Source: an uncultured bacterium (lineage in GTDB: Bacteria > Krumholzibacteriota > Krumholzibacteriia > JACNKJ01). From it: a stretch of DNA of 64,000 nucleotides. Within the stretch, counting starts at the first letter, position 1, and every line of letters begins with the position of its first letter. Below, in pieces: positions 33,601 to 37,538 of the stretch. The stretch spans positions 480,001 to 544,000 of the forward strand of contig CAVOFT010000001.1 of assembly GCA_963695095.1 (NCBI GenBank), written 5' to 3'. Made by a program: the position numbers.

Positions 33601-36600
33601 GGTGCGCATGGACTCAAGCTAGCGCAGTTGGCCGCCGCTCGCTAGGGGGCGGCGCGGCGCGCCAGGCGCAGCGCCTTCGTCTTCGGGTGCGCTTGCAGGT
33701 CGAAGACCTGGGTGATGTTCTCCGCGTGGCGGCGCCCGCCGTGGTCGCCGGGCAGGCGTGGGAAGCCGGGGTCGACGAGGATGGCGTCCAGCTCCCGACC
33801 GCGCGCGCGATGATCGGCGCAGCGCTCCCAGGTCTCCTCGAGATAGGCGCGCTGGCCGTCCAGAGCGTCGGCGCCGGCGAGGATGCCGTGGCCGGGCACG
33901 ACGATCTTCGGCTCGAAGCCGCGCAGGAGCTTGAGCGCCCGGATCCACGCCGGCACGTTCGCGTGCGTGAGGAAGGGATAGCGGCCCAGGAAGAGCAGGT
34001 CCGAGGCGAAGAGCACGCCGTCGTCCGGCAGCCAGAGCACGCTGAGGTCCGGCGTGTGCCCGCCCAGGTGGTGGAACTCCAGGCGCCGGCCGCCGAAGTT
34101 CAGGCGCTTGCGCTTGACGAAGGTCTCCGTGGGCGGCGTCACGCGCAGGTCGGTCAGGGCCTCGCAGTAGCGCTCGGCGCCGGCAGGGTCGCTCGCGGCC
34201 AGCTCGGCCAGCCACTGCTCACGCGCCTGGGCGGACCAGGGGCCGTCCAGCATCTCCTGCATCAACTCGGCGCAGCGCCGCTGCCCGAGGATTCGTGAGT
34301 GTACGAGCTGGTTGCCCCAGGTGTGATCGGCGTGGAAGTGGGTGTTGAAGGTGAGCGAGATGTCGCTCAGACACACGCCCTGGGCATCGAGGGCGCCGAG
34401 CAGCTCCAGGGCGCAGAAGGCGGTGTCGATGAGCAGCCAGCCGTCGGCGTCGCCCACGAGGCCCAGGTTTGCTCCGGCCTCCGGTCTGAGGCAGGCGTGG
34501 ACGCCCGGCCGCAGTTCGATCCAGTTCATGGCGCACCTCACGACGAGTCCGATCCCCGCCCCCCGGCAGCATGAGCTTAGACCTTATGGATCTCGCTGGC
34601 AAGGATTGCCGACGGTCGGAGCCGGCCGCTCAGAAGGGCGCGACGCGGGGCTGCCACTGGTAGCGTGCGAGCGGCACGCGTCCGGCAGCGCTCAGCTCGA
34701 CGCCCTCGGCGGCCAGGCGCAGGCGCTGCTCGATCCCGCCAGCGCCTTCCAGGCTGAGCTTGCCGCCCGCCCCGAGTACGCGATGCCAGGGCAGGCTGCG
34801 CCCCGCCGGCGTCTTGTCGAGGGCGTAGCCCACCTGCCGCGCGTGGCCGGGCAGGCCCGCGAGGGCCGCGATTTGCCCGTAGGTGGCCACGCGCCCCCTG
34901 GGGATCCGCTTCACGACGGCGTAGATGCGCTCGTAGCTGGGGTGGCGCTGGGTATCGGACTGACGCGGAGCCATGGCGGGAATCTAGCGCCTGTCGCCGT
35001 AGCTGCCAAGTCGGCGCTGGGACCGCAGGGTCCGCCGGCACGCCCATTGACGGTGAAGGGCGGTGGGTGCATTTTCAGCCCAAACTCCAGCCAGGGGGAC
35101 GCCCGCCATGGCCAGCCGCACGCCGCAGAACCTCGTCGAGAAGATCGCCCAGCGCTTCGCCTTCGGCCTCGAGCCGGGGGCCACCGTGCGCGCGGGCGAC
35201 TTCCTCTCCATCAAGCCCGCGCACGTGATGACTCACGACAACACGGGCGCCGTGATCCCCAAGTTCAAGGAGATCGGCGCGGCGAAGCTCGCCGACCCGC
35301 GCCAGGTGGTGATCACGCTCGACCACAACGTGCAGGACCGCAGCGAGAAGAACCTGGCCAAGTACGCGGGCATCGAGGCCTTCGCGGCGAGCATGGGCGC
35401 GGACTTCTACCCGGCCGGCCGCGGCATCGGCCACCAGATCATGTGCGAGGAGGGCTACGCCTGGCCGGGCACGATGGCGGTGGCCTCCGACAGCCACTCG
35501 AACATGTACGGCGGGCTGGGCTGCCTCGGCACGCCCATCGTGCGCACGGACGCGGCGGCGATCTGGGCGACGGGCCGCACCTGGTGGCAGGTGCCGCCGG
35601 TGGCGCGCGTCACGCTGACGGGCCGGCTGCGCAAGGGCGTGACCGGCAAGGACGTCATCATCGCCCTGGCGGGGCACTTCAACAAGGACGAGGTGCTGAA
35701 CCACGCCATCGAGTTCACCGGCGACGGCACGGCCACCCTGCCCATCGACTATCGCCTCGCCATCGCCAACATGACCACCGAGTGGGGCGCCCTGGTCGGG
35801 CTCTTCCCCGTGGACCCGGTCACGCTCCACTGGCTGCACGCGCGGGCCGAGTTCATCGCGAAGCGCGGCCTCGCGGGCCTGCCCTCGGATGCGGACGGCA
35901 AGGGCCAGCACCCGCGCCTGAACAAGGCACGCATCGATGCCCTGGCCGCGGCCCTGCCGGTCGCCGATCCGGACGCGCATTACGCCATCGAACTCGGCCT
36001 GGATCTGGCGAGCGTCGAGCCCCATGTCTCCGGCCCGCATCACGTGAAGGTGATGCGGCCCGTGAGCAGCTTCGCCGCCCAGCCGCTCAAGATCGACAAG
36101 GCCTACCTCGTCTCCTGCGTCAACAGCCGGGTCGAGGACCTCGCCGAAGCCGCGCGCGTGATCCGCGGCAAGCAGGTGGCCGCCGGCGTCGAGTTCTACA
36201 TCGCCGCGGCGAGCAGCGAGGTGCAGGCCGAGAGCGAGCGGCGCGGCGACTGGCAGGCCCTCGTCGCCGCCGGCGCCAAGGCGCTGCCGCCGGGCTGCGG
36301 GCCCTGCATCGGGCTCGGCGTGGGCCTCCTGGAGGACGGCGAGGTGGGCATCAGCGCCACCAACCGCAACTTCAAGGGCCGCATGGGCAGCGCCAAGGCG
36401 GAGGCCTATCTCGCGAGCCCCGCCGTGGTGGCGGCCAGCGCCGTCGCCGGCCAGGTGGCGATGCCGCCCGGCCTCGACTACGCGGGCGCCGCGCCGGTGG
36501 CCACGCTCAGCGCGCCGAAGCCCGTCGCCGCGGCGAGCGCAGCCGTCACCGTGCTGCCGGGCTTTCCCGCTCGCATCGAGGGCGAGCTGCTCTGGTGCCC

Positions 36601-37538
36601 CGCCGACAACCTGAACACGGACGGCATCTACCCGGGCAAGTACACCTACCAGGACGACTTCACGCCGGCCCAGCAGGCCGCCGTTGCGATGGAGAATTAC
36701 GACCCGGCCTTCCAGCAGCTCGCCAAGGAGGGCGACCTGCTCGTCGGCGGCTTCAACTTCGGCAGCGGTTCGAGCCGCGAGCAGGCGGCCACGGCGCTCA
36801 AGTACCGCGGCATCCGCCTCGTGCTGGCCGGCTCCTTCAGCGAGACTTACAAGCGCAATGCGCTGAACAACGGCTTCCTCGTGCTCGACGCGCCCGAGCT
36901 GGCGCGTGACCTCAAGGCGCGCTTCGGCGCGGAGAAGCCCACCGTGCGCACGGGCCTGGCCGCCCGGCTCGACGTGGCGGCCTCGACCCTGACCGTGGCG
37001 GGGAAAGCCTATGCGCTCGGCCCCATCGGCCCGGCGGCGCAGGAACTCGTGCTGGCCGGCGGCCTCGAGGAGTGGGTGAAAGCACGGCTCTAGGCCTCGG
37101 CCCGGCGCATCGCGCTCCTCTCGCCGAGCATGTCGATGACCTCGTTGCCCAGCGGCGGCAGCGCGTGCTGAGGGCCACGGCCGGTCGGCCACAGCGGGAA
37201 CCCGCCCCCGGGGGCGGAGTTGACCCGGGGCCTTCCCGCCGCCTATGCTCCCGCCATCCTGCCTCCGCCAACTTCCGAAGGAGCCCCCCTTGCCCGACAC
37301 GCACGACGACATCGCCCGCCTCGAGCGGCTGCACGCCGCGCACGCCGCCCTCACCGGCCAGATCGGCCGCGTCATCGTCGGGCAGGAGCACGTGGTGCGC
37401 GAGCTGCTCGTCTCGCTTTTCGCCGGCGGGCACTGCCTGCTGGTCGGCGTGCCCGGCCTGGCCAAGACGCTGCTCGTCTCCACGCTCGCCCGGGCGCTGG
37501 ATCTGCGCTTCAGCCGCATCCAGTTCACGCCGGACCTG

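Follow-up and report, generated by a model that had tools for sequence, protein, structure and literature searches.

What does a homoaconitase of the fungal Lys4 type do in a bacterium? A single gene raises this question in the 64-kb window (the whole stretch of DNA analysed here), and the earlier note proposed that it belongs with five other genes, scattered in this genome and joined in one operon elsewhere, that run the upper α-aminoadipate pathway backwards from lysine-derived 2-oxoadipate. Our analysis supports the six genes as one module which, judging from its sequences, probably turns 2-oxoadipate and CO2 into 2-oxoglutarate and acetate via (S)-homocitrate.

The homoaconitase of the window

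The gene (35108..37093, + strand) is an intact ORF encoding a single-chain Lys4-type homoaconitase of 661 aa, with the cluster cysteines C337, C397 and C400. An in-frame GTG lies upstream at 35063, but alignments with homologues begin at the ATG (35108). Its TIGR00139 score is the one found before (848.8 bits against a cut-off of 529.9); the 55–59% identity to fungal LYS4 given in the earlier note was not recovered, our values against 12 sequences from filamentous ascomycetes being 49–52% for the whole protein and 61% for the large domain alone. All 11 active-site motifs set against those of fungal Lys4 are identical or nearly so, 303 of the 397 columns invariant among the fungal proteins are shared, and in a FastTree phylogeny the bacterial homoaconitases and fungal Lys4 form one clade with a long stem (SH-like support 0.78). 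By score, cluster cysteines, active-site motifs and clade alike, the protein is of the Lys4 type. Fungal LYS4 may thus have come from bacteria; a 2012 tree, as presented in an excerpt of PMC3556520, had it arise by a possible gene duplication among eukaryotes. Within the class, 34 of 61 genomes encode a protein above the TIGR00139 cut-off, and at least 597 GTDB stretches contain a relative of the homoaconitase.

According to the same paper, fungal Lys4 interconverts only homoaconitate and homoisocitrate, and therefore a second hydratase is needed; its Table 1 reports genuine activity of A. fumigatus LysF towards isocitrate and citrate (PMC3556520). A role as sole TCA aconitase is ruled out for the window gene, since AcnA is present in the genome. 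The window contains no module gene other than the homoaconitase, and a local operon is ruled out as well: the gene's neighbours (an MBL-fold protein, a 114-aa ORF, an AAA ATPase and an RmuC-like protein) are unrelated to the module. On the coding strand, a promoter and terminator scan gave no match ahead of the gene.

A scattered module and its partner enzymes

The five partner genes lie outside the window on contig C1, where they had been placed before: a HicDH-like dehydrogenase (1641202-1642320, + strand), a CitF-like CoA-transferase (1647613-1649181, − strand), a CitD-CitE fusion (1649178-1650476, − strand), an MmgE/PrpD-family protein (1655177-1656703, − strand) and an HD-fold protein (about 80507-81046, − strand). 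Linkage was counted in 79 bacterial GTDB loci around homoaconitase genes, the fungal contig L060 having been left out of 80. The dehydrogenase gene is present in 49 of these loci, the HD gene in 48, the PrpD-like gene in 37, CitDE in 23 and CitF in 22, with the complete six-gene set in 19; the single operon described earlier is thereby reproduced on a different collection. So is the replacement of CitDE/F by an ATP-citrate-lyase-like pair: a fusion of SCS-alpha with citryl-CoA lyase is found in 13 of the 79, and in no locus does CitF occur together with the SCS pair. We have seen the module in Ignavibacteria, Acidobacteria, Gemmatimonadota, Verrucomicrobia, Planctomycetota, Marinisomatota and others. 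Our literature search, which most subscription papers lay beyond, returned no published description of it or its chemistry.

All 46 module dehydrogenase copies carry the substrate motif SPIV, as in S. pombe HicDH; the same stretch contains Asn in E. coli Icd and Arg in Thermus HicDH, and the position of the isocitrate-binding Asn is Ile in 46/46. The cofactor motif is of the NADP type in every copy (Lys-Tyr, shared with this genome's own NADP-Icd) and the Asp of the NAD-type motif of Thermus HicDH is found in none, so that the enzyme probably uses NADP. This does not fix its direction, because NADP-Icd runs oxidatively. The protein stays below the NCBIfam cut-offs, as had been reported: its best model is AksF2, of methanogen chain elongation (350 against 540), and LEU3_arch gives 316 against 410.

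As for the hydratases, the PrpD-like protein has MmgE/PrpD Pfam domains and 24% identity to E. coli PrpD, scores far under the PrpD cut-offs (93 against 575; 73 against 458) and has no prpB/prpC context, and so is not recognised as a 2-methylcitrate dehydratase. Its best PDB match, IDS epimerase instead of PrpD, counts against the explanation we favour. Proposed before as a part of the module, it is not a fixed one: it is replaceable by an altered-site aconitase, such as the one at L127:3344-5155, which precedes citDE in 8 of 9 family relatives where the PrpD-like gene is missing. What recurs is two hydratases, one PrpD-like or altered aconitase, the other Lys4-type or HacAB. A Si-face lyase combined with a PrpD-type hydratase points to a homocitrate intermediate that is probably (S), the mirror-image form. 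The HD protein has a confidently predicted fold (pLDDT 92.7) whose best match in Foldseek and Atlas searches is YhaM (TM 0.71), a generic HD fold only, and in 47 of 48 HD proteins the His of the HD dyad is replaced; that it is a repair hydrolase is a guess.

A citrate-lyase pair is indeed present, as the earlier note held, but it is not the classical carrier-protein citrate lyase. CitF and CitE share 40% and 41% identity with their E. coli counterparts, and a CitD-like domain is present; all three parts score below their cut-offs, CitF just under that for citrate lyase. The column of E. coli CitD Ser14, which we take to be the attachment site of the prosthetic group, holds Arg in 22 and Lys in 6 of the 28 CitD domains and Ser in none, with a Ser one position further on in 24/28. 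CitG is absent from all 51 carrier genomes, and in this genome tblastn gave no match to CitX or CitC. Loss of the carrier serine together with absence of CitG argues for a CitDE/CitF lyase that probably works without a carrier-bound prosthetic group and acts on free CoA. The alternative lyase consists of an SCS-beta-like subunit and SCS-alpha fused to a citryl-CoA-lyase domain, the domain being over its subfamily cut-off, and a stand-alone form of citryl-CoA lyase matches PDB 6hxp (2e-63). The SCS-beta-like subunit has a C-terminal extension and lacks, in 9/9, the motif that in ATP-citrate lyase (ACL) presumably binds citrate; in the same alignment that motif is present in the ACL-type subunit of G089.

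Substrate and direction

Lysine would be converted to 2-oxoadipate via the saccharopine route, the NADP-type dehydrogenase would carboxylate 2-oxoadipate to homoisocitrate, and the window homoaconitase, acting between homoisocitrate and cis-homoaconitate, would dehydrate it; the PrpD-like enzyme, or the altered aconitase in relatives, would then hydrate the face opposite to that used by aconitase, giving (S)-homocitrate, which CitF would put on free CoA and CitE would split into acetyl-CoA and 2-oxoglutarate. Other hosts may use the ATP-dependent SCS-like ligase with its citryl-CoA-lyase domain, or CitF with the stand-alone citryl-CoA lyase. Taken as reversible (2-oxoadipate + CO2 + NADPH ↔ 2-oxoglutarate + acetyl unit) and most likely catabolic here, this is our best explanation, and we find the case for it evenly balanced. 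Two groups of genomes count against it: four of family f2 encode homoaconitase, dehydrogenase and CitF but near citF show neither the PrpD-like gene nor the altered aconitase, and five of family f6 have homoaconitase without CitF or the PrpD-like gene.

This genome encodes the saccharopine route of lysine catabolism, the likely feeder genes lying on the + strand of contig C1 outside the window: LKR and SDH (3089575-3092336) and P6C dehydrogenase (2887558-2889066). The LKR matches human AASS at 7e-79 and yeast Lys1 at 6e-12. AcnA, citrate synthase and an NADP-Icd over its cut-off are present too. The absence of homocitrate synthase claimed before is borne out: in this 93.5% complete genome neither that enzyme nor LysX/Y/Z, DapB or a Lys2-type reductase was found, with no profile match for TIGR02146, TIGR02144 or LysY/LysZ and no thioester reductase over cut-off, and α-aminoadipate lysine biosynthesis is thus not recognised in it. 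The candidate g02369 is ruled out as a homocitrate synthase, its only PDB matches being HMG-CoA lyases, with no match to a homocitrate synthase (HCS) model at 1e-15; it appears to be an HMG-CoA-lyase-like protein. The fungal-type forward saccharopine pathway is also ruled out for this genome (thioester reductase over cut-off in 0/5 genomes tested). The saccharopine route, the genome's own AcnA and Icd, and the lack of homocitrate synthase, LysW genes and DapB make the catabolic direction most likely the best fit here. Against a catabolic module stand SucAB and a glutaryl-CoA-dehydrogenase-like gene, which provide the ordinary route for 2-oxoadipate. Lysine 6-aminotransferase gave no match over cut-off in this genome, and no aminoadipate transaminase step was identified in it.

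Among the other carriers, the backward direction proposed earlier fits less generally. No gene of the HCS/IPMS family is present in 28 of 51 carrier genomes, and LysX is absent from 37 and present in 14. P6C dehydrogenase accompanies homoaconitase in 32 of 34 class genomes against 11 of 27 without it (kin, and hence not independent), and adjoins the module operon in L037, in line with lysine as the input; in the f4/f7 families, which keep dehydrogenase and lyase, it is found in only 1 of 11, so that lysine may not be the input everywhere. These families have a saccharopine-dehydrogenase-family protein of 380-390 aa (5/5), for which an assignment to lysine 6-dehydrogenase was sought but not reached. 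From citrate-series energies, the standard energy of the CitF version in the catabolic direction is about +4 kJ/mol, near equilibrium; a catabolic run therefore needs a high NADPH/NADP ratio or high CO2. Direction does not seem universal: the LysW lysine operons of some hosts appear to rely on the module, and forward use in these is likely. The homocitrate/homoisocitrate series named in the earlier note remains the most likely set of substrates, given the Lys4 motifs and SPIV.

As an explanation of the module itself, forward operation is unlikely, if far from negligible. CitE or citryl-CoA lyase would stand in for homocitrate synthase by joining acetyl-CoA and 2-oxoglutarate on the Si face, and the 2-oxoadipate would serve LysW lysine synthesis or glutaryl-CoA oxidation, an arrangement that near-equilibrium chemistry allows. 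All 11 LysX loci inspected around HCS-like genes lack homoaconitase and HicDH within 12-18 kb; G004 has a LysX/HCS-like cluster, and its sole Iso_dh and sole non-TCA aconitase are those of the module; G010, a single chromosome record, combines a LysW cluster with synthase matches of LeuA/CimA length only; and in L030 the operon is joined to genes for an acyl-CoA dehydrogenase and 2-oxoacid dehydrogenase subunits. In G032, which has no HCS match, lysW-X-Y-Z-K is followed directly by a citryl-CoA-lyase-like gene, but this lyase is divergent (29% identical to the module's, below cut-off), and a LysW cluster that lacks HCS can have its role in arginine metabolism. Most carriers, moreover, lack LysX, no biosynthetic pathway consumes 2-oxoadipate in the present genome, which has an ordinary route that oxidises 2-oxoglutarate, and the ATP-dependent version should favour cleavage. 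Metabolite repair, in which a side reaction of citrate synthase with 2-oxoglutarate gives (S)-homocitrate that the module cleaves or oxidises to 2-oxoadipate, would account for the (S)-specificity of the set where the genome has a Si-type citrate synthase, and for an HD protein that looks like a repair hydrolase; it is very improbable, with two disposal routes redundant in one operon and module genes kept in G065, G077, G096 and G109, where citrate synthase gave 0 matches.

The f4/f7 families also bear on a citrate/isocitrate module, that is, reductive carboxylation of 2-oxoglutarate and cleavage to oxaloacetate and acetate as a branch of glutamate fermentation. There citDE-citF adjoin the genes for pyruvate kinase and PEP carboxykinase, the dehydrogenase cluster adjoins 2-oxoacid:ferredoxin oxidoreductase, malic enzyme and PFOR, and the three genomes tested have neither citrate synthase nor a canonical aconitase or any other besides the module's; G004, G018 and G023 (MAGs) show no other isocitrate dehydrogenase, CitF only just misses the citrate-lyase cut-off, and LysF has its side activity on isocitrate (PMC3556520, excerpt). 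We nevertheless regard this as improbable: the isocitrate-binding Asn is replaced throughout, the ligase subunit lacks the ACL citrate loop, one aconitase suffices for a symmetric substrate, where the module keeps two hydratases in addition to AcnA, and AcnA and Icd or monomeric IDH co-occur with the module, monomeric IDH being present in 5/5 relatives tested whose sole Iso_dh is the module's. In G089 a true ACL-aconitase-IDH operon adjoins the module's IDH-HD pair. The pyruvate-handling neighbours would also suit the shortening of other 2-oxo acids (2-oxobutyrate to pyruvate and acetate via (S)-citramalate, 2-oxoisocaproate, longer ones such as 2-oxopimelate) or a module of broad range; lyases of the citramalyl-CoA type belong to the CitE family, RipC/Ccl being the second NCBIfam match of CitE, and the AksF2 model and the HacAB-type hydratases of f4/f7 agree with this. 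It is quite improbable in view of a window enzyme over the homoaconitase cut-off with Lys4 active-site motifs and a dehydrogenase motif matching HicDH and not IPMDH.

Known systems and significance

If the homocitrate reading is right, the module gives 2-oxoadipate a third outlet, brings in a carboxylation step new among natural ones and finds (S)-homocitrate a role in nature, with an NADP-type HicDH, a PrpD-fold homocitrate hydratase, an altered-active-site aconitase and a carrier-free lyase as new enzymes; it would also correct annotations as 'citrate lyase' or 'ATP-citrate lyase', which in these MAGs can suggest citrate fermentation or reverse TCA. More tentatively, and with more doubt than confidence, bacteria of many soil, sediment and marine phyla may degrade lysine independently of O2 while fixing CO2 through an NADPH-driven homoisocitrate dehydrogenase, making (S)-homocitrate with two unrelated hydratases (PrpD-family or a new altered-site aconitase subfamily) and cleaving it with three interchangeable carrier-free CoA lyase systems, so that lysine carbon becomes anaplerotic; the same module would start homocitrate-synthase-free lysine synthesis in some lineages and be the bacterial source of fungal LYS4.

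With the fungal/Thermus upper α-aminoadipate pathway the module shares a Lys4-type homoaconitase over cut-off, the HicDH-type substrate motif and, going by an excerpt of PMC3556520, two enzymes for the isomerisation of homocitrate and homoisocitrate. That pathway, however, has homocitrate synthase, the TCA aconitase, an NAD-type HicDH motif and (R)-homocitrate, where the module has CoA-transferase/lyase or ligase/lyase, a PrpD-like protein or altered aconitase, an NADP-type dehydrogenase and probably (S)-homocitrate, often in the opposite direction. Unlike citrate lyase CitDEF (EC 4.1.3.6), it has CitD fused to CitE without the position-14 serine, and of the accessory CitC/G/X set none was found where sought. 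The citryl-CoA synthetase and lyase of Hydrogenobacter, ATP-citrate lyase and the reductive TCA cycle follow the same logic of reductive carboxylation, isomerisation and cleavage, the module being one carbon longer; its asymmetric substrate needs a second hydratase, and its beta subunit is without the ACL citrate-binding motif. The 2-methylcitrate cycle (PrpC, PrpD, aconitase, PrpB) likewise sets a PrpD-family hydratase and an aconitase-family enzyme on a Si-face condensation product, but continues with PrpB, whereas module loci show no recurrent PrpB-like cluster and the dehydrogenase follows instead. The glutaryl-CoA and HglS/YdcJ (PP_5260) routes also tie lysine-derived 2-oxoadipate to central metabolism, the latter, in an excerpt of 10.1101/450254, through D-2-hydroxyglutarate to 2-oxoglutarate; in contrast to both, the proposed module would add CO2 where they release it, employ no Fe(II) oxygenase and yield 2-oxoglutarate plus acetate.

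A homoaconitase gene and its partners

The open reading frame at 35108-37093 (+) is intact and encodes a 661-aa protein of the aconitase family, P0001. The earlier note had called it a Lys4-type homoaconitase, and the homoaconitase model TIGR00139 bears this out, with a score of 848.8 vs a cut-off of 529.9; none of the 24 other models listed for P0001 in the profile search passes its cut-off. The neighbouring genes in the window are unrelated to the proposed module, which joins the homoaconitase to a homoisocitrate dehydrogenase (HicDH)-like enzyme, a PrpD-like protein, an HD protein, a CitD-CitE fusion (CitDE) and CitF; the partner genes were located where that note had placed them on the contig (C1), all outside the window. 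The source genome (G000; 3.64 Mb, 93.5% complete) has its own housekeeping set: a second aconitase, an NADP-isocitrate dehydrogenase over cut-off, citrate synthase, SucAB and SucCD. Its assembly seems to contain frameshift errors, as suggested by split tblastn matches to sucA, sucB, a class III aminotransferase, an acyl-CoA synthetase, hutH and hutU (C1:2721654-2725749, 380851-382072, 2863355-2864346 and others).

Directly upstream of the homoaconitase gene, 34630-34974 encodes a 114-aa product with a Trp within an alkyltransferase active-site motif and no NCBIfam match, which we take to resemble alkyltransferase-like (ATL) proteins. At 24871-29901 lie four tandem paralogous acetyltransferase-like ORFs (~320-370 aa each), presumably of GNAT type, the one tested having no NCBIfam match; a C45-family autoproteolytic acyltransferase/hydrolase, over cut-off, follows them. 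Elsewhere on C1, g02369 (2715406-2716575; L087:7407-8576) encodes a divergent HMG-CoA-lyase-like protein of 390 aa, under the family cut-off.

The module is real and widespread. A GTDB scan found at least 597 stretches encoding homoaconitase relatives, the best 80 of which were fetched; one was left out as a fungal contig inside a bacterial MAG (L060:2-2551, a contaminating fungal mitochondrial homoaconitase, 85% to Baudoinia, in a MAG labelled Ferrimicrobium). Among the 79 loci counted from these best 80, many of them cut by contig ends, the dehydrogenase occurs in 49, the HD gene in 48, the PrpD-like gene in 37, CitDE in 23 and CitF in 22, and all six genes stand together in 19, so the recurrent six-gene set of the earlier note is upheld. 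An SCS-alpha/citryl-CoA-lyase fusion is present in 13 loci, and CitF and the SCS pair are mutually exclusive (0/79 with both). In two Calditrichia genomes the lyase takes a third form: a citryl-CoA lyase on its own is followed by HD-dehydrogenase-PrpD, with citF divergent. The gene set persists while its order differs between phyla. Of 61 genomes of the window's class (completeness of 90% or more in 55), 34 have the homoaconitase, 48 the dehydrogenase, 38 CitF and 21 the PrpD-like gene; 25 have homoaconitase as well as CitF, 9 homoaconitase only, 13 CitF only and 14 neither.

Other genes accompany the module in places. A TrmB-like regulator, a possible handle on the inducer, sits between the citryl-CoA lyase operon and citF in the Calditrichia genomes (L178:12016-12795, L179:8303-9061); a CstA-family transporter gene separates the dehydrogenase and HD genes in Ignavibacteria/Bacteroidota (L005:7271-8902, L016:7725-9353, L079:7755-9398); and hutH and hutU, labelled from their sequences, lie nearby in 4 and 3 of the same 79 loci, respectively (L036, L047, L062, L063).

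Probable substrates and a proposed second hydratase

We consider it likely, from sequence comparison, that the substrates are those of the homocitrate series. Of 12 mitochondrial homoaconitases of fungi, P0001 is 49-52% identical to 10 over its full length and 61% identical to the other two over the large domain; it shares 303 of the 397 columns invariant in the fungal enzymes and is close to them in the 11 active-site motifs compared. The dehydrogenase has Thermus HicDH as its best PDB matches, and all 46 full-length copies read SPIV ahead of the first catalytic Arg, as does S. pombe HicDH, where E. coli Icd has Asn115. The same 46 carry a Lys-Tyr cofactor motif common to the source genome's NADP-Icd (Asp-Ile in Thermus HicDH), which, from family knowledge, we take to indicate NADP preference. 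PMC3556520 has fungal Lys4/LysF interconverting homoaconitate and homoisocitrate and unable to dehydrate homocitrate, a step done by aconitases, and gives LysF a side activity on isocitrate and citrate (Table 1). The module dehydrogenase is the sole Iso_dh in 9 of 10 family relatives, and a monomeric IDH is present in 5/5 tested class genomes of this kind. It may have a dual function in three MAGs (G004, G018, G023), because no other isocitrate dehydrogenase was found in them. In G089, the dehydrogenase-HD pair of the module and an ATP-citrate lyase-aconitase-IDH operon stand back to back (L134:1151-11061).

The 12 fungal sequences fall on a long branch inside the bacterial clade of a FastTree tree (96 rows, 644 columns; root, a 650-aa aconitase). 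The node closest to them has a support of 0.96, and some deeper nodes have 0.31-0.69; given the narrow fungal sampling, a bacterial origin of fungal LYS4 is a lead only.

In the proposed catabolic sense, 2-oxoadipate would pass through homoisocitrate, cis-homoaconitate and (S)-homocitrate to 2-oxoglutarate and an acetyl unit. Homocitrate synthase forms (R)-homocitrate, and citryl-CoA lyase and ATP-citrate lyase (ACL) are pro-3S specific. Citrate lyase has the same specificity in its profile model description. For 2-oxoglutarate, CIP priorities imply that a Si-face lyase would require (S)-homocitrate, in which the dehydrated arm would also be the acetyl arm. PrpD overcomes this problem in the 2-methylcitrate cycle, where it dehydrates (2S,3S)-methylcitrate, which aconitases cannot (PMC3556520). 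We infer a need for a second hydratase and (S)-homocitrate, a reading that gains support from the displacement of the PrpD-like gene by an altered aconitase in family relatives. The PrpD-like gene is absent from 9 of the 10, and in 8 of these 9 a ~600-aa fused HacA-like aconitase lies upstream of citDE (one copy is truncated at the edge of the fetched stretch, and the contig of the ninth relative stops at citDE). The source genome and a same-genus relative have the PrpD-like gene at that position, and the former lacks the altered aconitase. The active site of this enzyme is rebuilt (RDFGG vs the family THD, with a shifted His motif), and families f4/f7 of the class have it beside HacAB in place of the Lys4-type enzyme. 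There are exceptions: neither hydratase was seen near citF in four f2 genomes that have homoaconitase, dehydrogenase and CitF, and in five f6 genomes the homoaconitase occurs but CitF and the PrpD-like gene are both missing. The PrpD-like protein scores far under the PrpD cut-offs, its best PDB match being IDS epimerase. The altered aconitases form an uncharacterised fused HacA/B-like subfamily, with 17 copies seen (for example L127:3344-5155 in G067, L130:8423-10330 in G053 and L208:10165-11970 in G083) and a nearest Atlas cluster of 205 members.

Direction of the proposed pathway

The earlier note had the module running backwards, which fits the source genome but is not universal. As that note held, homocitrate synthase appears to be missing (no HCS/IPMS-family match at 1e-30); LysX, LysY, LysZ, DapB and a Lys2-type reductase were likewise not found there, and adjacent LKR and SDH genes and a P6C dehydrogenase, of the saccharopine route, are present. 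On this gene content, 2-oxoadipate is probably supplied, not required for synthesis. The LKR matches human AASS at 7e-79 vs 6e-12 for yeast Lys1. Among 51 genomes carrying the module homoaconitase (the source genome plus 50 from the 79 loci of the best 80, for which completeness was not given), a synthase-family gene is absent in 28, and LysX is found in 14, DapB in 23 and P6C dehydrogenase in 35. Within the class, P6C dehydrogenase occurs in 32/34 genomes with the homoaconitase vs 11/27 without, counts in which kin are not independent.

A forward, biosynthetic use is suggested elsewhere, and several gene contents speak against a universal catabolic role. Of 12 loci retrieved by way of the best HCS matches, one is a leu operon, and the other 11 have LysX but no homoaconitase or HicDH of their own; in G004 the module's enzymes are the only candidates for these two steps; in G032 a citryl-CoA-lyase-like gene directly follows lysW-X-Y-Z-K, with no HCS match; and in f4/f7 P6C dehydrogenase occurs in 1/11 genomes, citrate synthase and AcnA were not found in 3/3 tested, and the lyase genes adjoin those for pyruvate kinase and PEP carboxykinase. 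The G032 gene, divergent in sequence, ends the LysW lysine operon of this Phycisphaerales MAG (L164:9868-14923). With citrate-series energies, the CitF version would stay within ~15 kJ/mol of equilibrium across the conditions considered, cleavage being favoured only at high NADPH/NADP or CO2, and the source genome also has a standard glutaryl-CoA route. Overall, a catabolic direction in the source genome is about an even call.

Lyase and HD protein

CitF and CitE share 40-41% identity with their E. coli counterparts and score under cut-off. The column of E. coli CitD Ser14, presumably the prosthetic-group site, holds Arg in 22 and Lys in 6 of 28 module proteins, with Ser one position later in 24; CitG was found in 0/51 carrier genomes, and CitX and CitC gave no tblastn match in the source genome. 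The lyase is for these reasons probably carrier-free, a CoA-transferase plus an acyl-CoA lyase acting on free CoA. The related carrier MdcC is modified at Ser25, and MdcD-MdcE turn over a free CoA ester (PMC5534430). The ACL citrate-binding motif was seen in 0/9 beta subunits of the ATP-dependent alternative lyase.

All parts of the module belong to known folds; new, if true, would be the pathway, the (S) enantiomer and the carrier-free lyase. As far as we searched, in literature thinly covering subscription journals, neither the module nor the cleavage of homocitryl-CoA nor a reductive carboxylation that uses 2-oxoadipate was found described. The route known to connect 2-oxoadipate with 2-oxoglutarate in bacteria is that of the Fe(II) enzyme PP_5260 (10.1101/450254).

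The HD protein has a confidently predicted HD fold, nearest to YhaM, and 47 of 48 copies have another residue in place of the His of the HD dyad. Its gene occurs with each of the three lyase forms, an argument against its acting in the maturation of a carrier protein. Families f4/f7 also have a second CitF-like gene, a distant one (~33% identity to the E. coli protein), which adjoins acetyl-CoA synthetase (L133:16363-17991, L152:9070-10746, L153:8771-10372), and PFOR adjoins it in two of these three loci.
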